Shown: piece after piece, positions 6,548-20,380 of the stretch
Layout: the number at the start of each line of letters is the position of its first letter
Position numbering within the stretch: position 1 is the first letter of the stretch
From: a virus
Lineage: Duplodnaviria > Heunggongvirae > Uroviricota > Caudoviricetes
Direction: 5' to 3' (one strand)
Length of the DNA stretch: 22,295 bases
Virus record (IMG/VR): IMGVR_UViG_2579779049_000014
Coordinates: 1 to 22,295 of that record
Position numbers and translations under genes: made by a program
Notes under the pieces: model-generated
What the model saw: only the letters and a program-made list of their open reading frames with translations
What the model was told of the DNA's origin: nothing
The model's database searches: none

Positions 6548-7131
6548 GCAACGTAATTTTTACTTATAACGAAGAAGCAGCACTGACCGCAGGGCAAGGT
6601 GGTTTTATTAACGAAACTGGCGCTCACATAATTACCATTACTGAAGCAGAACTCAAGCAATCAGAAAAAGGAGCCAAATTTATTGAGTTTTCTGGAGAAT
6701 CCGACGACGGACGTAAAATCCAGTATCTTAGCGTCTGTGTTCAGAAAAATGACGGCACGGAAAACAAATTTGGCGCAAATGTCGTTCACGCCATGATGGG
6801 GTGTGCCGGGATTGGACAATTAACGCAACATATGGTTTCCGCCAGTAAATTTGTTGCACCTGAATTTCATGGAAAGAAAATCGGGTTAGTGCTCCAGAAA
6901 GTATTAACCACAAACAAAAAGACTGGCGCAGACAGCTACCAGATGGAAATACGCATCCCGTTTATTGCACAAACAGGTCAAACCCTTAAAGAAAAGGCAG
7001 AAGGCAAGCAACCAGAAACTATCGCCAACATGGTTGCCAGCCTCAAAGATAAAGACAATCGCTCTAAAAACGTAAGCCATAATCATGCAGATGATTATGG
7101 TTACAGCCAGAACGATTACCCTCCTTTCTGA
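6544..7131 (+). CDS. Putative ssDNA-binding partner protein (SSB-like C-terminal tail)
   Basis: Start overlaps the upstream stop (ATGA); the acidic/aromatic C-terminus …HADDYGYSQNDYPPF resembles SSB tails that end in PF; sits next to the Sak4-like ATPase. Confidence 0.4.
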   Translation: MSNVIFTYNEEAALTAGQGGFINETGAHIITITEAELKQSEKGAKFIEFSGESDDGRKIQYLSVCVQKNDGTENKFGANVVHAMMGCAGIGQLTQHMVSASKFVAPEFHGKKIGLVLQKVLTTNKKTGADSYQMEIRIPFIAQTGQTLKEKAEGKQPETIANMVASLKDKDNRSKNVSHNHADDYGYSQNDYPPF

Positions 7132-7154
7132 TTACTGAAAATAAGGCTCCCATT

Positions 7155-7451
7155 ATGCCAGCGCCTCTGTATGGTGCGGATGACCCGCGCAACTGCTCCG
7201 GTAGCTCCAAGGCGGAGGTGCTGGAAAATATCAAAAACAATTTCGACGCGTTTCTTGCTCTGACACCAGAAACAAAAGCAGAACGGATGTACCGACGCGA
7301 TATACAACTCGCGCTAAAACAGGAGAAGGACCGAACAAACGAAACAGCAATGAGACCGTTGCGAAAAGCGACAATAGACAAATTCCCTGAATATATCGAC
7401 CCGCGCCTGCGTAATTACCGCTCACGCTATGGCGCTATCAGTAATGACTGA
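7155..7451 (+). CDS. Hypothetical protein
   Basis: 98-aa ORF on the operon strand; weak Shine-Dalgarno. Confidence 0.45.
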
Positions 7452-7461
7452 GGAATTTACC

Positions 7462-7629
7462 ATGAGAGGACTTGCATACAATCCCGGCATTCTTCCGGCA
7501 GAAATGATTATTCGCCAACGCGTAAAGCCAATGCCCTCGAGAGAGGAATTGCTTAAGAGAAAGAGTTTCGGTTCTGTTAATGACAACAAATATCTGAATG
7601 CGATGTTGCGCAAAGGAGGCAACCAGTGA
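7462..7629 (+). CDS. Small protein sharing the C-terminal RKGGNQ junction module
   Basis: ATG at 7462 with GAGGAA upstream; ends …MLRKGGNQ, with its stop overlapping the GTG start of the next gene. Confidence 0.4.
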
Positions 7630-8255
7630 GCAAAATTGACTATCAGGCACTGCGTGAGGCGGCAGTAGCAATTGAAACAGTAGCAACGCCTCAAAAATTG
7701 CTGGCATTTCGTATGAAAGTCACACCTCAGGTTGTGCTGGCGCTACTGGATGAACGAGATGCATTAAACGAACGCATAGCCGAACTGGAGGCTAATTTAG
7801 CGGAGCTGGCCGAAGACCAACAGAAAGCGATTGAGTCAATTAAGCAGGCTGATGCGGCTGTTAAGTTGGCACACGAGAAGTTTTCGGTGCTGGCGGCAGA
7901 GAATGCGGAGCTTAAACAGTCGGAGAAGGAATTTAATAACTTCTGTCGTCAGGAGTACTACGGTTGGGAGGACAACTTCACGGAAACCCCAGCCACCGAC
8001 GCTTTCCTGGCTGAAATTCGTGCGGCGGCTCGCAACGAGGGTATTAACTATACCGCAAGCCGTCTTGCTGCTGCTTTCAATCACGGATTTATCAATAAGT
8101 CTTTGCGTGAAGTTTTCGACGTTACACGCATGATTTTGTCAGCGAAAGAAGAGTTGGCTAATGAAGCGCATCCGATTGATGGCCTGTCTGGTGAATATGC
8201 GGAGAAATCCCTTGAAGAATGGGCGGAACAGATTCGCAAAGGAGGAAACCAGTGA
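7626..8255 (+). CDS. Ea22-like early protein (coiled-coil), paralog 1
   Basis: GTG start at 7626 preceded by AAAGGAGG; [13 protein letters not shown]…, coiled-coil central part, ends …IRKGGNQ; lies in the lambda ea22 position. Confidence 0.55.
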
Positions 8256-8845
8256 GCAAGATTGACTATCAGGTACTGCGTGAAAAGGCAGAAAAAGCAA
8301 CGTGTGGTGAGTGGTCTCTCGAATATGGAGAGAGCCGATTTGATGGTGATGATGCACTAATTCATCGCGAGGCTGCTGGATATATTCCCATTTGCAGAAT
8401 TGAAGGAGCGCATCCTGAAAGCGGTTTCGATGAAGATTTCCAAATGGAACAGCAGGCCAATGCTGAATTCATCGCCGCAGCCAATCCGGCTACCGTCTTG
8501 GCGCTGCTGGATGAGCTGGAAAGAAACCAGCAATACATCAAACGCCGCGACCAGGAGAACGAGGATATTGCGCTAACGGTAGGGAAACTGCGTGTTGAGC
8601 TTGAGGAAGCAAAATCAAAACTCAACGAGCAACGCGAGTATTACGAGGGAGTAATCGCGGATGGAAGTAAGCGCATAGCAGAACTGTCTGCTAGCCACAG
8701 CAAATTGCGCGACACAATGGCTGGCATCCACAACACAATCCGAATGGATGGCGGCTATACGCCACTGGCAGCAATCCTTAACGCTGCTAAACGCGCATAT
8801 GAAGAATCAGCAAGCGCCGCTGGCATCAAGGAGGAGTCTGAGTGA
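8252..8845 (+). CDS. Ea22-like early protein, paralog 2
   Basis: GTG start at 8252 after AAAGGAGG; [13 protein letters not shown]…; the N-terminus and the upstream DNA are near-repeats of paralog 1. Confidence 0.55.
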   Translation: MSKIDYQVLREKAEKATCGEWSLEYGESRFDGDDALIHREAAGYIPICRIEGAHPESGFDEDFQMEQQANAEFIAAANPATVLALLDELERNQQYIKRRDQENEDIALTVGKLRVELEEAKSKLNEQREYYEGVIADGSKRIAELSASHSKLRDTMAGIHNTIRMDGGYTPLAAILNAAKRAYEESASAAGIKEESE

Positions 8846-9336
8846 TGGTCATTTCACCTATAACGCTGAAAGCGGCGCAGGAATTTATCGCACAGCACCA
8901 CCGACACAATAAACCACCAGTGGGGCATAAATTCAGCATTGGTCTGAGAAATAATGCCGGAGAATTGATAGGTGTGGCGACAGCTGGTCGACCTGTTGCA
9001 CGACATTTGGACGATGGATTAACGCTTGAAGTAAATCGCACATGTACCACAGGAGAACGCAACGCTAACAGCGCGCTTTATGGTGCTGTCTGGCGGGCAG
9101 CAAAAGCTATGGGTTATCAACGTTGTATTACGTACACCCAGGCAGATGAATCAGGAGCATCTCTTCGCGCAGCTGGTTTTGTTCGTGTGAAAGAGCTTCC
9201 TCCAAGAAAAAGCTGGGCGGAATCAAGCGTCGCCCTGCGGAGTAAACGCGATCCGGTCGGAAACGGTGGTATTCCTCGTGTGCTCTGGGAAATCAGGAGA
9301 ATGAGTACCGCTGGCATTCGCATCAAAGGAGAGTGA
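8845..9336 (+). CDS. Hypothetical protein, possible GNAT-like acyltransferase fold
   Basis: ATG at 8845 with AAGGAGGAG 7 nt upstream (GTG at 8842 is the alternative). Segments …GVATAGRPVARHLDDG… and …YTQADESGASLRAAGFVRV… resemble GNAT motifs; weak. Confidence 0.4.
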   Translation: MVISPITLKAAQEFIAQHHRHNKPPVGHKFSIGLRNNAGELIGVATAGRPVARHLDDGLTLEVNRTCTTGERNANSALYGAVWRAAKAMGYQRCITYTQADESGASLRAAGFVRVKELPPRKSWAESSVALRSKRDPVGNGGIPRVLWEIRRMSTAGIRIKGE

Positions 9337-9337
9337 G

Positions 9338-9529
9338 ATGAACGGACAAATCTCAATTGTTCGACCGGGAGCATGTGACGATCGCGAGATACGAATGATT
9401 ATTCGTCTGGCGATGGGGAAAACAATAACTGCTCTCATTACTCCAGAAAATCTCGCATTAGCATTAACCGGAAAGTCAGACCTGCCAGTAGAGCTAAAGC
9501 TGCGAAATGTTGAGATTAAGGTGAAATAG
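9338..9529 (+). CDS. Hypothetical small protein
   Basis: 63 aa; AAGGAG upstream; tightly coupled to its neighbours. Confidence 0.45.
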   Translation: MNGQISIVRPGACDDREIRMIIRLAMGKTITALITPENLALALTGKSDLPVELKLRNVEIKVK

Positions 9530-9531
9530 CT

Positions 9532-10143
9532 ATGACCACTATTACCGACAAAGAGCTAATTAAAGAAATTAAAGAACATATCAGCAGTCTGGGGGTGCGG
9601 GACAATATTGAGCGCCGTGCTTATGAAATTGCGTTGACTGCATTGACCGCTGAACCATTCGCCACTATCGACACCGCGGGAATTGAGCTCGTTAAATATG
9701 GTTGTAACACGTTTATTAGTCCCGACAATTCGATGGATCCGGGAAATGTACCGCTATATATCGGCCTGCCACGAATTGAGCCAGCAAGCCAGACTGCCAA
9801 GCTGTCATTCCAGGAATGGTTGTCAGAACAAAAAGAAAAAATAGACGTTGATTGCGGATGTGTGAGCACTGAAACGCTTATGCACTGGATGCGTGTGGCG
9901 TATGAGGCTGGCAACTCTCCGGTAATTCCGGATGGTTGGATAAGCTGTAGTGAGCGAATGCCAGAAATTAGACAAACAGTTATTGGATGGAATGAATATG
10001 CAGTTAGACAATGCGTATATACAAGGAATGAATATGCCAAGACACAGAAAGGCAGAGAGCCAAGGTTTGAAACCTTAACTGGTATATGGCATGGAGTAAC
10101 CCACTGGATGCCGCTACCAGAACCGCCGCAGGAGGTGAACTGA
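9532..10143 (+). CDS. DUF551 domain protein
   Basis: C-terminal …WHGVTHWMPLPEPPQ matches the DUF551 signature common in enterobacterial prophage early regions. Confidence 0.6.
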   Translation: MTTITDKELIKEIKEHISSLGVRDNIERRAYEIALTALTAEPFATIDTAGIELVKYGCNTFISPDNSMDPGNVPLYIGLPRIEPASQTAKLSFQEWLSEQKEKIDVDCGCVSTETLMHWMRVAYEAGNSPVIPDGWISCSERMPEIRQTVIGWNEYAVRQCVYTRNEYAKTQKGREPRFETLTGIWHGVTHWMPLPEPPQEVN

Positions 10144-10538
10144 TGGAAAATGAAGGCGATAATATCATCACACTGGTGCAGCCAAAGCGCGATGAAGAGA
10201 AGCTGCTGAACATTACAGTAACTGGCAGAAAAAACTACACACAACAGAGCTGTAAGCATCGGGCCATTGAGGTTCATGAACAGGATCACGTTATCCTGTG
10301 CTTGCAGTGCGGATGTGTTGTGGACCCTTTTCAGTATGTTCTGCGGTGTGCGAACGATGGTGAGGCTGTGGTGAGAGAGATTAGACAGCTTCATAACAGA
10401 CACGATCAGCTCCGAGAATCTGTTGCCAGCCTCGAGCGTGAAGAAAAGAACACCAAAGCACGGTTGCGGGCAGCAAGAACTGCAATACTGTATGCGGAAA
10501 ATGACCTTAAAAATATTGAGCAGAAGGTGAATCAATGA
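10143..10538 (+). CDS. Hypothetical protein with a Cys/His cluster and C-terminal coiled coil
   Basis: ATG at 10143 overlaps the upstream stop (TGATG); GGAGGTG upstream; C-x4-H … H-x4-CLQCGC may bind zinc. Confidence 0.5.
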   Translation: MENEGDNIITLVQPKRDEEKLLNITVTGRKNYTQQSCKHRAIEVHEQDHVILCLQCGCVVDPFQYVLRCANDGEAVVREIRQLHNRHDQLRESVASLEREEKNTKARLRAARTAILYAENDLKNIEQKVNQ

Positions 10539-10618
10539 CCTGGCCTGAAGCATTCGCAAATGTAGGAACAGTAATGGCGGTGGTGCTGGTTGTGTATTCG
10601 ATTTGTCGCTGGAGATAA
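10535..10618 (+). CDS. Possible 27-aa hydrophobic peptide
   Basis: ATG at 10535 with AAGGTGA upstream; MTWPEAFANVGTVMAVVLVVYSICRWR, one predicted transmembrane helix. Confidence 0.25.
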   Translation: MTWPEAFANVGTVMAVVLVVYSICRWR

Positions 10619-10744
10619 AAACGGTTTGCGGGAAAAGGAGAGTTAAGTAGAATTGCTGCGGGTGCTTGAGGCTATCTGCCTCGGGCATGAACACCAACGG
10701 CAGATAGAGAAAAGCCCCAGTTAACATTACGCGTCCGGCAAGAC

Positions 10745-10815
10745 GCTTAACATTAATCTGAGGCTCAATCCATGCTGAACACATGTAGGTTAGCCTCTTA
10801 CGTGCCGAAAGGCAA
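10745..10815 (-). ncRNA. sok: Predicted Sok-type antisense RNA (boundaries approximate)
   Basis: Inferred from hok/mok family architecture, where the antisense RNA is complementary to the mok translation-initiation region; promoter and terminator were not resolved. Confidence 0.3.
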
Positions 10816-10984
10816 GGAGAAGCAGGCTATGAAGCAGCAAAAGGCGATGTTAATCGCCCTGATCGTCATCTGTTTAACCGTCATAGTGACGGCACTGGTA
10901 ACGAGGAAAGACCTCTGCGAGGTGCGAATCCGAACCGGTCAGACGGAGGTCGCTGTCTTCGTAGACTACGAATCTGAGAAGTAA
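10772..10984 (+). CDS. mok: mok-type coupling reading frame, in-frame N-terminal extension of hok
   Basis: The 70-aa track ORF beginning MLNTCRLASYVPKGKEKQA continues in frame into the Hok sequence. Confidence 0.45.
   Translation: MLNTCRLASYVPKGKEKQAMKQQKAMLIALIVICLTVIVTALVTRKDLCEVRIRTGQTEVAVFVDYESEK
10829..10984 (+). CDS. hok: Hok/Gef family type I toxin (small membrane toxin)
   Basis: MKQQKAMLIALIVICLTVIVTALVTRKDLCEVRIRTGQTEVAVFVDYESEK fits the Hok/Gef signature (hydrophobic helix, TRKxLCE, EVA.F) and is closest to HokC/HokD; AAGGAG upstream. Confidence 0.85.
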   Translation: MKQQKAMLIALIVICLTVIVTALVTRKDLCEVRIRTGQTEVAVFVDYESEK

Positions 10985-11103
10985 GAGACCAGGCGGGGGA
11001 GTAATCTCCCGCCACCTCTGATGTGTCAGGCATCCTCAACGCACCCGCGCTTTACCATACTGAAAATGCTGTTTGAATGTTCATCTCTGAAAGAGGACTA
11101 TGA

Positions 11104-11448
11104 ATGAAAAAGGTATTGATTGCAGCACTTATTTCTGGTGTGTCTTTTGGCGCTTTTGCACAGCAGGGCGGTTTCCAAGGGCCTGAAGCAGAGCGTTCAA
11201 CAGTAGCGCAGGCAAAAGAACTGAAGGATGATGCATGGGTTATCCTTGAAGGGAGCATCGTTAAAAAAGTGGGTGATGAACGTTATGAGTTTCGTGACAA
11301 TAGCGGGACAATTGTCACGGATATCGATGACAGCATATGGGCCGGTCAGAATGTTTCTCCGAAAGACAAAGTAAGAATTGAGGGTGAAATTGATAAAGAC
11401 CTGAGCAGTGTTGAAGTGGATGTAAAGGCACTGAAATTATTAAAGTAA
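11104..11448 (+). CDS. YgiW/YdeI-family (BOF) periplasmic OB-fold protein
   Basis: Signal peptide MKKVLIAALISGVSFGAFA, then the family pattern …ERYEFRDNSGTIVTDIDDSIWAGQNVSPKDKVRIEGEIDKD…; AAGAGG upstream. Confidence 0.7.
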   Translation: MKKVLIAALISGVSFGAFAQQGGFQGPEAERSTVAQAKELKDDAWVILEGSIVKKVGDERYEFRDNSGTIVTDIDDSIWAGQNVSPKDKVRIEGEIDKDLSSVEVDVKALKLLK

Positions 11449-11465
11449 CCGTCCCAGCTTGCTAA

Positions 11466-11492
11466 GCCCGTCTTACTGACGGGTTTTCTGTT
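11466..11492 (+). terminator. Rho-independent terminator
   Basis: CCCGTC-TTACTG-ACGGG followed by TTTTCTGTTTGTT. Confidence 0.65.
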
Positions 11493-11527
11493 TGTTATCA
11501 CAGTATTTTTCAACAAAACACCGAATC

Positions 11528-11900
11528 TTATCCGGTGCGCTGTAAAACCCCGTCCTTCAGGGCGTGGAGGATGTCAAATGGCGTATATTTGGATATAAGA
11601 AAGCCATCCAATACTGGCTGAAAAAACTCCTCATCGATATCATCGTGGGCCTGAATAGTTCCATCCGCAATTCTGATTGCCGGTATTGTTCCCCGGCGAT
11701 AAGGGGTGAACATCATCCCGGTTACATCAGATCGCCTAATAACATATCAAGATTATTTTGCTCATAAATGCTATTCGCCATTACCGTTGCTGCTTCAGCT
11801 TAATGAAACGCATAGATCCGCCATGCTTTTTCAGCAAATACGCTGCCATTTGCGCAACTTTTTCTTCATTAAACATAAATCGGCTCTCTGTATCACATGA
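11528..11900 (-). pseudogene. Fragmented minus-strand reading frames, possibly a frameshifted gene remnant
   Basis: A 31-codon ORF (MFNEEKVAQMAAYLLKKHGGSMRFIKLKQQR) is followed in other frames by short ORFs and the 62-aa track ORF at 11528..11716; no intact gene spans the region. Confidence 0.25.
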
Positions 11901-11998: not shown

Positions 11999-14900
11999 TT
12001 AATCCACTCCCACTTTTTTGTTGTACTCGCGGTTAAACCGATCCACGGCAATTTTCATATCCCGCTCTACCGATTTCACCATCGCCGACTGTTGCGCCAG
12101 ACTGAGAGTACTGTCGGCGTAAATGGCATCACGCTGTTTACGCAAATCCTTCAGTCTCTTCCGGGTATCCTGCATAAGCCCGTTCATCGACAATTTTCCG
12201 TTGTTCTCGTCAATGAACGCCGTTCTTTCTGCACCGGTCAGACTCTTCAGCTCTGCGTGATACTGCGCAATCTCTGTCATCCGGTCGTACATCTTCTGCT
12301 GGTCTGCATACGGCATCACCTCACCTGAAATTTTCCCCAGGAAGGGCACCTGCTGCTCCGGTATATCAATACCATTCAGCGATTTCACCGCCGCATCCGT
12401 GGTTTTGGAAATGAAGCGCCCTGTCCCTCCGGAGATATAGTCCACCCAGTATTTCAGCGATTCCGGTGTGATATCCACCGCGCCGGGACGGTACTGGCTG
12501 CCACCAGAGAACGCATTCAGCCAGGATGCAAACGCCTTGTACGCTTCTGGCGTTGAACGTCTTCCCAGCTGGCTGTCAGGTTTTGGTGTACCAAACGGCA
12601 TGTTCTCCTGGTAAATCTGCGCCCCCATGAAGTTTTCATTCATGGCAAGGTTCGCAAACGGACGCAGAATGGTCGGCGCTGCATTTTTCAGCAATGCCCC
12701 GGACAGTGTTTCCGACGTCTCACTGCCCACAGGACTGAATGCCCCAAGCACACCACCAACAACATTACCGGCAGCACGTGAAGCGGTCAGGTCGCCCGCT
12801 GCCACCCCTTCGGCTGTGTGACCAAGCAGGAAGAAAACGTTGTACCCGTAAGGCAGAGGAATACTCCAGTACTCTCCGGCCTTGCCCCCGAACACCGATT
12901 TCATAATGACGAGGTTACGCTCTTTCACATGAGACGGCACCTTGTCATACCAGTTAACCCCGTCATCATCCTCCCCCGCAACACTGCGGTTAAGCGAGCC
13001 AAGCAGATAACCCGCTCCCACAGCTGCAAGCGCGATTTTCTGCGGTACATTGAGATTCTTCCAGCGAAGGCGCTCCAGTAACGGCCCGTCGCCATTAAGA
13101 TGTCCGAGCGTTCTCACCAGGTTTGCGGTCCCCTGAATGCTGGCGTTGGCGAACATGTACAGCGAGTTCATCAGCGCTCCCTGCTCACCACGACGGTTAA
13201 AGTTCACCGTCATGTTTTTGGCAAGAGACGCCGCCTGCTGGCGTGACAAACCGGCATCACGGGCGTGTTTATAGGCAGAAAGACGCAGAGCGTTTTCAAC
13301 CGCCCCGTTGGCATCCTCGACAAGGTTAAGGAACGAATTCCATGCACCGATACTCTGGCCTTTCCATCCTCCCTTCGCCAGCGATACAAGGCGATCCATT
13401 TCCTTCTGCTGGCCTTCAAGGTCACCCATGTTAAACCAGCCGGTTTTACCTCCGTCCTCAACAAACTCTTTCCACACCTTCTGCCACTGTGCACCTTTTC
13501 CCGTGAGGGTTTTACCACGCAGACTGGCGTATACGGCTGACATGGCAGAACGGCTGTCTTTCACCACAGCCAGGGCGGATAAGTTATCCAGCCCTTTCAG
13601 TTTACCGTCGCTCCTTCCCTGCTCCGCCTTCAGGTTCATCACCGCCGTCTGCACGTCACGGATGAAGTTACTGACCAGGAATTCCGGGTTATACGACGTG
13701 TTCACCGTTGCCAGGAAGCGGTTAACTTTCCCCAGCGTACGAACAAAGGCATTGCTGGTTTCCGGTCCCATATTCTTCATCGCACGCATCAGGCGCGGAT
13801 CATGGAGTTTGATGTAGTACGTTTTGCCGTTCTTTTTGGTGGTGAAGTACCGGTCTGCCATCATTGCCATCGGTACAGGGCGTTCGACAACTTCGCGAAT
13901 GGTTTCACCAGTTTCCTGGTCCTTGCGCTCTGCAATCGTCCGCATGGTATCCGGTCTGTCATCGGTGAATACCTGCCAGTAATCCTTGTCGGGATTATCC
14001 TGCACCAGTTTCAGGAAGGCGTTACCCACTTCGTTTTTGCGATGGCGGATCAGCGATTCGCTCAGGTCCTGTATCGCCTGAGTGGACGGAGACTGTGCAC
14101 GGGATGCACGCCCCATGGCCTGCCTGCTTTCACGTCCGCCGATGGTGAAGCCCTTACCTGTACGGGGAAGTGACACCACACCGTCAACATCCTGACCTTT
14201 CAGGGGAACGTAGTAACGGTAAGCTTTCTGCCAGGCATCCACAACACCGCTCTCTTCCAGTCCGGCTTCACGGATAAGCTCACGGCGACGGGCCAGCATA
14301 TCGTCAACAATCCCTGCCAGACGGTCATACTGTGCCTGTTTGCCGCTGTTACGCACACGCTGCATGATTTCCGCCGCTTCCGCGTTGGTCATCCCCGAAC
14401 CGCCGTCCGGCATTTTCGGGTTGATTTTCGCGATATGCGCGTTACGTTCCGGCGCGTGACGGGCGTAGAGGTACTCATCCAGATCGGCCTGCGCAATTTT
14501 GTAGTCCGCCAGTAATTTAGCCAGTGGCTGAACGTAGCGCTCCTTCATCACGTTCAGGTCGTTTTCCGCCTTCCCGTGGAAGAGTTCTTCCGCCATATAA
14601 GCGTTGTTACTGTCGTCCACTTTGCCGCCAGTTTTACGGATATTCTCCTGAACAGCTTTCAGCACCTGGAATTTATCCTGCATCTGGCGCACAAAACGCG
14701 ATGCAATTGTCTCTTCCGGTGTCAGACTGCTGGTACGGGAGTAATACGGCCCCTTGCGAATATCTTCAGGATAGAGTATTTTATCCGCAGAGCCGCGATA
14801 AGAATGTTCCCCTTTGGGCAATTGGAGCCCTCTGTGCAGAAGGTTATCGCGGCTTAATTTTTCTCTCCGGTACAACGTTAACCCGGTCATTTCCATACTC

Positions 14901-20380: not shown

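Follow-up and report, generated by a model that had tools for sequence, protein, structure and literature searches.

In the window, by which is meant the whole stretch of viral DNA analysed (22,295 nucleotides), an uninterrupted open reading frame (ORF) of 2793 codons plus stop occupies 8.4 kb of the minus strand, accompanied by two smaller genes and a terminator-like element:

11999..20380, minus strand: giant ORF, 2793 aa plus stop; orthologue of Sp5 ORF80/ECs1242, VT2-Sakai VT2-Sap73, phi24B vb_24B_48 ('gp47') and P13374 ORF78
20398..20417, minus strand: GC-rich hairpin followed by a T-run, terminator-like; between the 421-aa gene and the giant ORF, directly upstream of the GGAG and ATG at 20380
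20450..21715, minus strand: 421-aa ORF; orthologue of Sp5 ORF79/ECs1241, Cys-free, of no known family
21726..21977, minus strand: 83-aa glycine-zipper peptide; RefSeq 'bacteriocin', Cys-free

The continuous 8.4-kb frame had been reported in an earlier reading of the sequence (hereafter the original prediction), which left the strand unstated, and it is borne out here. Listed from its first ATG, the ORF extends over 11999..20419 and encodes 2806 aa, a RefSeq-style start that was rejected: the terminator-like hairpin would then fall within the coding sequence, and distant homologues begin at the 20380 methionine. The start at 20380, giving 2793 aa, is preferred because GGAG precedes it, because the hairpin at 20417-20398 would otherwise be intragenic, and because distant homologues align their own residue 1 with residue 1 of this start. 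The giant ORF is conserved, coding and subject to purifying selection: it occurs at full length and at least 90% identity in 186 phage records, with a dN/dS of 0.11-0.16 (versus the phi24B and Sakai orthologues), which together exclude an assembly artefact.

Its placement at the end of the virion operon is also correct. In the window, P13374, phi24B and VT2-Sakai alike, the gene follows the tail-fibre genes and closes the late operon; it converges on ygiW/mokW-like and early-left genes as it does in VT2-Sakai, where the gene order is the same as in the window. The description of such a frame as exceptional for a lambdoid prophage holds in general only, because within the short-tailed Stx phages this gene is the rule.

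Domain architecture of the giant protein

Approximately 75% of the length of the giant protein is now assigned to domains or modules, listed here from the N-terminus:

18671..20083, minus strand: N-terminal module, aa ~100-570; matches the N-termini of phage giants
17741..18670, minus strand: low-complexity P/Q/E/G-rich linker, aa 571-880; disordered, kept in close relatives only
16799..17740, minus strand: extended LPD5 domain, aa ~881-1194; Pfam LPD5 match at aa 1051-1200
16046..16798, minus strand: predicted zincin domain 1, CLCA_X type, aa 1195-1445; the unannotated HExxH-1 segment plus Pfam LPD1 (aa 1361-1440)
16508..16531, minus strand: HEWFHSLD, aa 1284-1291; HExxH-1 motif plus an Asp three residues beyond
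16235..16258, minus strand: EMAARAFE helix, aa 1375-1382; within Pfam LPD1, with E1375, R1379 and E1382 invariant
15386..15973, minus strand: predicted zincin domain 2, aa ~1470-1665; outside any Pfam model
15713..15730, minus strand: HEIIHH, aa 1551-1556; HExx[H/G]H in relatives
14846..15163, minus strand: MuF-C/PBECR (BECR-fold RNase-like), aa 1740-1845; Pfam MuF_C
12002..14683, minus strand: C-terminal constant module, aa ~1900-2793 (~900 aa); contains LPD38
12338..12955, minus strand: Pfam LPD38, aa 2476-2681; moderately hydrophobic Gly/Ala-rich segments at aa 2445-2467 and 2515-2551

Four Pfam families match above their gathering scores, namely LPD5 (E 8e-45), LPD1 (1e-23), MuF_C (1e-17) and LPD38 (1e-48), and these are among the families that define phage-type polyvalent proteins (Iyer, Burroughs, Anand, de Souza & Aravind 2017), in support of the polyvalent-protein reading of the original prediction. 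LPD5 was itself defined as a polyvalent-protein family in 2017 (Iyer et al. 2017), and the RefSeq label of the gene is already 'LPD5 domain-containing protein'. Judged from homologues, the LPD5 family begins near aa 880-900, ahead of the Pfam match. At relaxed thresholds, Pfam searches of seven sub-segments returned nothing significant in the N-terminal 1040 aa, in aa 1840-2350 or for either HExxH segment.

Alanine and glycine abound in the N-terminal module, where a single hydrophobic segment spans aa 181-199 and a stretch resembling a glycine zipper spans aa 393-425; at 29-35% identity, the module matches the N-termini of many phage giants of 2000-4600 aa. No strong transmembrane helix is predicted in the giant protein, the best 19-mer having a Kyte-Doolittle mean of 1.38. 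A 1087-aa protein encoded upstream of P0205 in L003 was considered as a split-off N-terminal module, which was not established from a single marginal BLASTP match (E 0.41, to aa 306-477). The low-complexity linkers of the original prediction are real, at about aa 571-880.

Both HExxH-bearing peptides quoted in that prediction, ALAHEWFHSLDNY and LRHEIIHHAMEHV, are present, the motifs starting at aa 1284 and 1551 and thus 267 aa apart (about 265 in the earlier account). From composition, ~0.04 (0.037) such motifs would be expected in the protein. Each lies in a conserved domain with a predicted zincin fold, although the second motif is better read as HExxxH; that the motifs might not be conserved is likewise excluded. 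In domain 1, the HExxH is kept in 68/68 distant homologues, and an alignment of 50 sequences (30-52% identity) has H1284, E1285, W1286, H1288 and D1291 invariant, as are H1263, E1265, E1375 and E1382. The predicted order of helix, three-stranded sheet, HExxH helix and second helix in domain 1 is that of a zincin fold. Since E1375, R1379 and E1382 are invariant, the EMAARAFE helix is a candidate source of the third zinc ligand; the candidate residues in the domain as a whole are D1291, E1375 and E1382, all three invariant.

The closest sequence family to domain 1 is CLCA_X (NCBIfam NF041907), which matches aa 1182-1437 with E 2e-43 over model positions 3-245 of 250 and shares the conserved Asp after HExxH. 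The score of 148.5 bits falls below the curated full-length cutoff of 260, and the domain is thus a divergent or embedded relative and not an equivalog-level member. CLCA_X is a zincin-like family related to the self-cleaving CLCA_N metalloprotease domain, and many of its members are phage proteins of more than 1000 aa (Lenart et al. 2013); zinc binding and peptidase activity are predicted properties of the family and of the giant protein alike. In domain 2, two strands precede the predicted helix that holds the HEIIHH motif. Eleven relatives (22-40% identity) carry HExxHH or HExxGH, with H1551, E1552 and H1556 conserved and H1555 not, which makes HExxxH the conserved form. Domain 2 usually lies directly upstream of the C-terminal module in relatives.

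MuF-C matches the isolated segment with E 4.5e-19. [quoted passage not shown] MuF-C was defined as BECR-fold RNase-like and not as a peptidase, and its RNase activity is a prediction of the same authors (Iyer et al. 2017). The segment is mosaic among Stx phages: the allele of the window is the common one (135 records at 99% identity or above), and dS between it and the phi24B allele reaches 0.54 there.

Mostly alpha-helical apart from one beta subdomain, the C-terminal module holds numerous invariant polar residues and is under the strongest purifying selection in the protein (dN/dS 0.05-0.08). Its predicted model is of moderate confidence (pLDDT 67); it has no solved structural relative, and neither structure nor sequence matched T7, P22 or N4 ejection proteins. 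The module is 45-58% identical in proteins that bear methyltransferase, ART, RadC, AcrIF11-like, lysozyme or tail-tip domains instead, and it extends to podoviruses of Vibrio, Ralstonia and Burkholderia. The order N-terminal module, LPD5, first and second metallopeptidase domain, optional MuF-C, C-terminal module recurs in dozens of giants. One protein (P0189) consists of a lone C-terminal module, encoded in a ~16-kb int/xis/repressor element devoid of structural genes. A PDB sequence search found no relatives of the whole giant protein or of its 421-aa neighbour, and PADLOC defence models gave no matches.

A probable internal virion protein of short-tailed Stx phages

The giant gene is the same gene as phi24B gp47 (vb_24B_48), Sp5 ORF80 (ECs1242) and the 933W and VT2-Sakai orthologues, with allelic differences only. 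Full-length identity to orthologues is 96.7-99.4%, ranging from phi24B (96.7% over all 2793 aa) to P13374 and TL-2011c (99.4%); the neighbouring genes correspond and neither motif is disrupted. Much is already published on these orthologues. ORF80 of Sp5/VT2-Sakai is needed for infectious particles: its deletion permits excision and packaging, abolishes plaque formation and lysogenisation, can be complemented, and leaves DNA-filled heads to which an anti-tail-fibre antibody does not bind (Mondal et al. 2016). Mass spectrometry of purified phi24B virions found gp47 to be abundant, yet it is missing from the cryo-EM map (phi24B preprint), and the authors in 2026 proposed it as an encapsidated ejection protein. 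An unrelated LPD38-containing giant, PTXU04_00025, is likewise essential.

These observations support the suggestion that the protein is packaged in the capsid, and we put at roughly 70% the probability that the ORF encodes an essential giant internal virion protein of the short-tailed (933W/phi24B/Sp5-type) Stx phages, polyvalent of the phage type and packaged and ejected as proposed. Delivery into the host is suggested by the absence from the cryo-EM map together with a parallel in phage N4, taken up below. Previous publications already cover the gene, the fact that it is essential, its occurrence in virions and its polyvalent nature; the reading is supported but is not new.

The neighbouring genes may share in this picture. 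Sp5 ORF79, the orthologue of the 421-aa ORF, is also essential, with a deletion phenotype identical to that of ORF80, and the 421-aa ORF is syntenic with a 435-aa gene in L003 and with JC1 gp68. The 83-aa glycine-zipper peptide is possibly a small ejection or membrane protein. Cysteine is avoided throughout: there is none in the 2793 aa of the giant protein, 26 in 241,737 aa across 82 giants, none in N4 gp50, gp51 and gp52, and none in the five consecutive genes gp74-gp78.

Alternative roles

P22-type ejection-protein mutants are not known to show the phenotype of the Sp5 deletion (full heads, no tail-fibre antibody binding), a difference that can be counted against ejection and in favour of a role in building or attaching the short tail. 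Such a role was the interpretation placed on the phenotype by its authors, who saw a tail-assembly defect (Mondal et al. 2016); the protein would then be an assembly factor or structural component of the tail, acting as an energy-using AAA+ enzyme or as a scaffold, and would not be ejected. The position of the gene after the tail genes fits this view, as does the COG1483 AAA+ match reported in 2016. The AAA+ idea is rejected because the Walker motifs are absent: neither [GA]xxxxGK[ST] nor hhhhD[DE] occurs anywhere in the 2793 aa, and no ATPase family was matched in Pfam, NCBIfam or PADLOC. Furthermore, the phi24B tail has been fully modelled without the giant protein despite its abundance in virions, the domain content is of the polyvalent type, and loss of a portal-docked internal protein could secondarily block stable tail attachment. 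The giant protein also falls outside the tail-fibre and tape-measure families, which excludes a conventional protein of either kind. Tail assembly as the primary role is accordingly regarded as improbable.

Podovirus ejection proteins often have wall-degrading activity, T7 gp16 being the usual example, and the HExxH domains might by analogy degrade peptidoglycan, making a way through the wall for a trans-periplasmic conduit. A wall-degrading role has been put forward for the phi24B protein, where it was ascribed to a 'MuF-C metallopeptidase' (phi24B preprint), and some relatives of the C-terminal module do bear wall hydrolases. In those relatives, however, the hydrolases are separate lysozyme or lytic-transglycosylase domains (PF00959 in P0170; LT-like in JC1 gp69), of which the giant protein has none, and MuF-C is RNase-like according to the paper that defined it. 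Predicted peptidase activity would belong instead to the two HExxH domains, which corrects the assignment in the preprint. Their nearest folds are protein-cleaving zincins (MtfA, Pro-Pro endopeptidases, lethal factor) and not LAS or M23 muramoyl peptidases, and the nearest sequence family, CLCA_X, is kin to self-cleaving proteases, leaving wall degradation by these domains a distinctly unlikely function.

A purely accessory effector of anti-defence or host takeover, a DarB-like moron dispensable for particles, is very improbable: although the gene lies beyond lom and other morons, relatives carry ART, AcrIF11-like, RadC and methyltransferase cargo, and a PHROG 'DarB-like antirestriction' family matches aa 2351-2681, that match is confined to the shared LPD38 region, the LPD36, adenine methyltransferase and SF2 helicase triad of P1 DarB is wholly absent by Pfam, and constraint is strongest on the C-terminal module and not on the enzymatic cargo. 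The protein is no mere accessory effector because its Sp5 orthologue is essential, on a K-12 host, and the heads left by its deletion are filled with DNA but negative for the tail-fibre antibody.

Relation to known systems

With an internal, ejected virion protein as the preferred reading, three systems offer useful comparisons. Firstly, like phage-type polyvalent proteins, the giant protein is encoded with virion genes and carries LPD38, which is reported in phage-type members only; its two zincin metallopeptidase domains match two described variants, one with a His after strand 2 and an Asp three residues after HExxH, the other with HExxxH (Iyer et al. 2017). It is essential, whereas polyvalent proteins were framed as conflict effectors, in a main text that leaves Stx phages unmentioned (Iyer et al. 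2017).

Secondly, the 'DarB-like' giant of Bcep22/JC1 phages (JC1 gp69, 4515 aa) and its Ralstonia-phage homologues share the C-terminal module with LPD38, with 26-27% identity across some 86-100% of its length. Like the Stx giant, JC1 gp69 is encoded where the virion module ends, behind a virion protein of ~500 aa; mass spectrometry detects it in virions, along with gp68 and gp67, which precede it. Phages of this type also share portal, MCP and head-closure homology with 933W. The cargo differs, comprising a lytic transglycosylase, adenine methylase and SNF2 helicase in JC1 gp69, as against LPD5, two zincins and PBECR in the Stx giant.

Thirdly, the N4 virion RNA polymerase gp50 is similarly giant, Cys-free and invisible in virion maps, and is laid out in parallel, with a membrane-active N-terminal domain, cargo, an HExxH subdomain and a large alpha-helical C-terminal domain without structural relatives. 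Together with the ejection proteins gp51 and gp52, it follows the same gene order of small, medium and giant as in the window. There is no detectable sequence homology between the two (hhalign probability 2%), a result that likewise rejects a profile relationship between the C-terminal module and the CTD of the N4 polymerase, and in N4 the cargo is an RNA polymerase. Experiments have established that N4 gp50 is ejected; for the Stx giant we infer it.

A tentative model of ejection

The constant ends and variable centre of the protein suggest how such a molecule might work. The giant protein would be encapsidated with the DNA and, once triggered by the receptor, would leave through the portal and tail, largely unfolded; its lack of cysteine is compatible with transit of the oxidising periplasm. 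The N-terminal (glycine-zipper and hydrophobic) and C-terminal (LPD38) modules would form a constant 'chassis' for packaging, contact with the portal or tail plug and crossing of the envelope, a role in which the Cys-free 421-aa and small glycine-zipper proteins encoded upstream may share. The central part would be exchangeable cargo: LPD5, the two putative zincin-fold metallopeptidase domains (CLCA_X-type HExxHxxD and HExxxH type) and the RNase-like PBECR. After ejection, the peptidases would most probably cleave the polyprotein itself or its partners, releasing functional pieces, and a freed RNase-like module would target host or defence RNA. Taken as a whole, the proposal is possible but rather doubtful: an essential, Cys-free 'ejection chassis' with recombinationally exchangeable cargo, whose zincins would, once ejected, cleave the polyprotein and so liberate an active PBECR RNase to attack host or defence RNAs at the very start of infection.

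Implications

Through short-tailed Stx phages, Shiga toxin genes spread among E. coli, and the giant gene takes up ~14% of the genome of these phages. How a protein of ~300 kDa is packed with DNA, exits through a short tail and helps to bring the genome across the envelope is a question posed explicitly by the phi24B authors. The domain map provides targets for mutagenesis (E1285, E1552 and H1752) and module boundaries at about aa 570, 880, 1195, 1445, 1470, 1665, 1740, 1850 and 1900. If the proposed model is true, Stx phages would inject a nuclease effector alongside their DNA, and a run of late genes lacking cysteine would be a general signature for the ejection-protein operons of podoviruses.

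Identity and boundaries of the giant gene

An ORF listing of the minus strand of the window gives one very long frame, 11999..20419, of 2806 aa from its first ATG; a start at 20380, as proposed in the original prediction, gives 2793 aa.

Features of the window
1-11900, plus strand: lambdoid immunity and early-left region, in which minus-strand cII and cro side are followed by cI, a Ser/Thr kinase gene, N and an anti-RecBCD gene
9621-10784, minus strand: 387-aa ORF antisense to the early-left genes and overlapping several plus-strand ORFs, probably a spurious shadow ORF
10772-10984 and 11104-11448: two ORFs matched, by length and relative position alone, to the mokW/gef-like and ygiW/ydeI-like genes located beyond the giant gene in VT2-Sakai
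11999-20380, minus strand: giant gene
14681-15178, minus strand: mosaic MuF-C/PBECR cassette, aa ~1735-1900
20398-20417, minus strand: hairpin and T-run, 18 nt before the start codon at 20380, separating the giant gene from the essential 421-aa gene
20450-21715, minus strand: 421-aa ORF, the counterpart of Sp5 ORF79
21726-21977, minus strand: 83-aa ORF

The start at 20380 is favoured because GGAG precedes it, because the 39 nt 5' of it hold a GC-rich hairpin and then a T-run (20417-20398), as is usual for terminator-like elements between genes, and because distant homologues align their own residue 1 with its residue 1. RefSeq and phi24B annotations begin the ORF at the upstream ATG (20419), so that the hairpin is translated, and the 'putative leader peptide' remarked on in phi24B is probably a product of this mis-start.

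The possibility that the frame is an assembly artefact is excluded by 186 phage records carrying the full-length gene at no less than 90% nucleotide identity, and by low dN/dS (0.16 against phi24B, 0.11 against the VT2-Sakai orthologue). Every one of these full-length matches (186/186) is a short-tailed Stx-converting phage, from the Sepvirinae and relatives, and the suggested comparison with such phages identifies the ORF as their known conserved gene. Its orthologue in phi24B, vb_24B_48, retains both zincin motifs and shows 96.7% identity across all 2793 residues. P13374 carries the gene as ORF78 under the name 'LPD5 domain-containing protein'. There it closes the series of late genes, preceded by those for the tail fibre, by lom, by a mokW-like gene and by four ORFs of small or medium size, in agreement with the predicted position at the end of the virion operon. 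The lambdoid region in the left half of the window (cII, cI, kinase, N, anti-RecBCD gene) converges on the 3' end of the giant gene, and VT2-Sakai is arranged alike. Over the ~53% of it that aligns, this half is 99.1% identical to TL-2011a, a partial phage record. The giant gene, by contrast, is nearest to that of TL-2011c; E. coli O103:H25 is the host serotype of both phages.

Central domains

Both HExxH motifs are present, HEWFH at aa 1284 and HEIIH at aa 1551, with a spacing of 267 aa where about 265 had been claimed; composition leads one to expect 0.037 such motifs in the protein. The low-complexity linker is likewise there, as a little-conserved, P/Q/E/G-rich stretch at ~aa 571-880.

Pfam domains of the giant protein
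LPD5: aa 1051-1200
LPD1: aa 1361-1440
MuF_C: aa 1750-1839
LPD38: aa 2476-2681

No Pfam model matched over either HExxH, relaxed thresholds included. The stretch of LPD5, HExxH-1 and LPD1 is repeated as a unit in hundreds of proteins, many of only ~480 aa, and HExxH-1 is kept in all 68 distant homologues that span it. As H1263, E1265, H1284, E1285, W1286, H1288, D1291, Y1369, E1375, R1379 and E1382 are invariant in a 50-sequence alignment (30-52% identity), the unannotated HExxH-1 segment and 'LPD1' are together predicted to form one catalytic unit. This first zincin domain (MPT1) has two marks of the phage-type MPTase clade of Iyer et al., a conserved His ahead of the motif and an Asp three positions beyond it. 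The NCBIfam model CLCA_X matches aa 1182-1437 (E 2e-43, under its curated cutoff); that family was defined in 2013 as zincin-like, from phages and bacteria, and kin to the self-cleaving CLCA protease domain. Relatives of the second domain (MPT2; 22-40% identity) read HExxHH or HExxGH, and H1555 is not conserved, so that the conserved pattern is H1551-E1552-x-x-x-H1556. Whilst both motifs stand, the second is therefore conserved not as the HExxH of the original prediction but as the HExxxH variant of polyvalent-protein MPTases. Peptidoglycan hydrolysis by the zincins is a rival reading that no homology supports; where relatives have this activity, it resides in lysozyme or LT domains of their own.

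The remaining central domain, MuF-C, was described in the phi24B preprint as a metallopeptidase, a statement we reject, as its definers give it as a BECR-fold RNase-like domain (Iyer et al. 2017, PMC5512222). The copy in the giant protein keeps its predicted catalytic His (H1752) in 20/20 sequences and Ser (S1816) in 95%. Its segment is locally mosaic, with a dS of 0.54 against phi24B and 0.02-0.13 elsewhere in the gene, and is bimodal among the 186 Stx phage records (135 with at least 99% identity and 44 with 60-90%). The two groups and the high dS suggest that the module has been exchanged by recombination.

Terminal modules

An exhaustive HMMER search with aa 1-1040 matched aa ~100-570 to the N-termini of many proteins of 2000-4600 aa, at 29-35% identity, and showed aa ~860-1040 to be an upstream extension of LPD5. 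The C-terminal ~900 aa recur at 45-58% identity in proteins with other domains (methyltransferase, ART-PolyVal, RadC, AcrIF11-like ART, lysozyme, tail-tip); this C-module has many invariant polar residues and is under the strongest purifying selection in the gene (dN/dS 0.05-0.08). Dozens of giants share the order N-module ... LPD5-MPT1-MPT2-(MuF-C)-C-module, MPT2 usually adjoining the C-module directly upstream. By tblastn, the C-module occurs in ~100 Vibrio phages, at 41% identity. Bcep22-like podoviruses of Ralstonia and Burkholderia have it as well, at 26-27% and under the annotation 'DarB-like', and Bacillus podoviruses have part of it. The 4515-aa giant of JC1 and the two proteins preceding it are virion proteins by MS, and in phage PTXU04 a further LPD38 giant is essential.

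Two further loci carry related modules. In an Amphritea MAG (GCA_036960915.1, L002 4052-20029) a 981-aa protein is the C-module alone, at 54% identity, on an element of ~16 kb that encodes integrase, excisionase, YqaJ-type exonuclease and S24 repressor and lacks capsid and tail genes; the element may be what is left of a prophage, or else satellite-like and supplying its own copy of the C-module. In a distant relative (Logan SRR28496340, L003 5465-15025) either the giant is split or a 1087-aa protein comes before it; a 1674-aa LPD38 protein carries RadC and an AcrIF11-like ADP-ribosyltransferase, and a 435-aa gene with 24% identity to the 421-aa ORF (E 2e-8) occupies the same upstream position.

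Cysteine avoidance

The giant protein has no Cys in 2793 aa, and 82 related giants, each at least 2000 aa long, have 26 in 241,737 residues, 70 of them being Cys-free. This observation also takes in loci L001 9289-20382 and L008 6524-19524. The N4 ejection proteins gp50, gp51 and gp52 share this absence, whereas N4 tail proteins contain Cys; in P13374 five consecutive genes, gp74 to gp78, are Cys-free, whereas portal, terminase and other virion proteins are not. Proteins that pass through the periplasm unfolded may thus be recognisable in sequence by their lack of Cys. The 83-aa ORF upstream encodes a glycine-zipper membrane peptide (Pfam Gly-zipper_YMGG, E 9e-6), a character that accounts for its 'bacteriocin' label in RefSeq relatives. 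A 'bacteriocin homolog' found in phi24B virions was dismissed as a contaminant (bioRxiv 2026, 10.64898/2026.04.10.717836); from its position in the Cys-free gene block, the peptide may be a genuine small ejection protein.

Function and published record

Mondal et al. 2016 (PMC5155283) deleted Sp5 ORF80 (ECs1242, 'an extremely large ORF' of 2,793 aa). The mutant excised and packaged its DNA normally but lost plaque formation and lysogenisation, and complementation restored these; its heads, normal in appearance, failed to bind anti-tail-fibre antibody. Deletion of ORF79 behaved identically. The tail-less phenotype fits a role in tail assembly, or as an AAA+ protein, but the giant protein has no Walker motifs and the tail model has no place for it. 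Reading the protein as a DarB-like effector with a purely accessory role conflicts with its essentiality and with its lack of methylase-helicase domains. The phi24B giant ('gp47') is abundant in virions by MS and missing from the cryo-EM model; the same preprint assigns it LPD5, LPD1, LPD38 and MuF-C and proposes an encapsidated ejection protein (10.64898/2026.04.10.717836).

Conservation, presence in virions and essentiality are established. The best-supported reading, to which we give a probability of roughly 70%, is that the gene encodes an essential internal virion protein, which would enter the capsid together with the DNA and be ejected from it. The conserved modules at the two ends of the protein would serve packaging, portal interaction and envelope crossing, and the central region (LPD5, two zincins and an RNase-like effector) would be cargo; the zincins, as putative zinc-dependent proteases, most probably process the polyprotein itself, and MuF-C may act as an RNase.

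The packaged polyvalent protein first predicted is essentially the interpretation already in print; 'polyvalent proteins' as a class, with their LPD, MPTase and PBECR domains, go back to Iyer et al. 2017 (PMC5512222). As gene, size, essentiality, virion association and polyvalent-protein annotation are all in the literature, the finding is a rediscovery. Incremental additions are the correct position and type of each peptidase domain, the reassignment of MuF-C as RNase-like, the picture of a constant chassis with variable cargo, the mosaic PBECR cassette and the Cys-free signature shared with the N4 ejection proteins.
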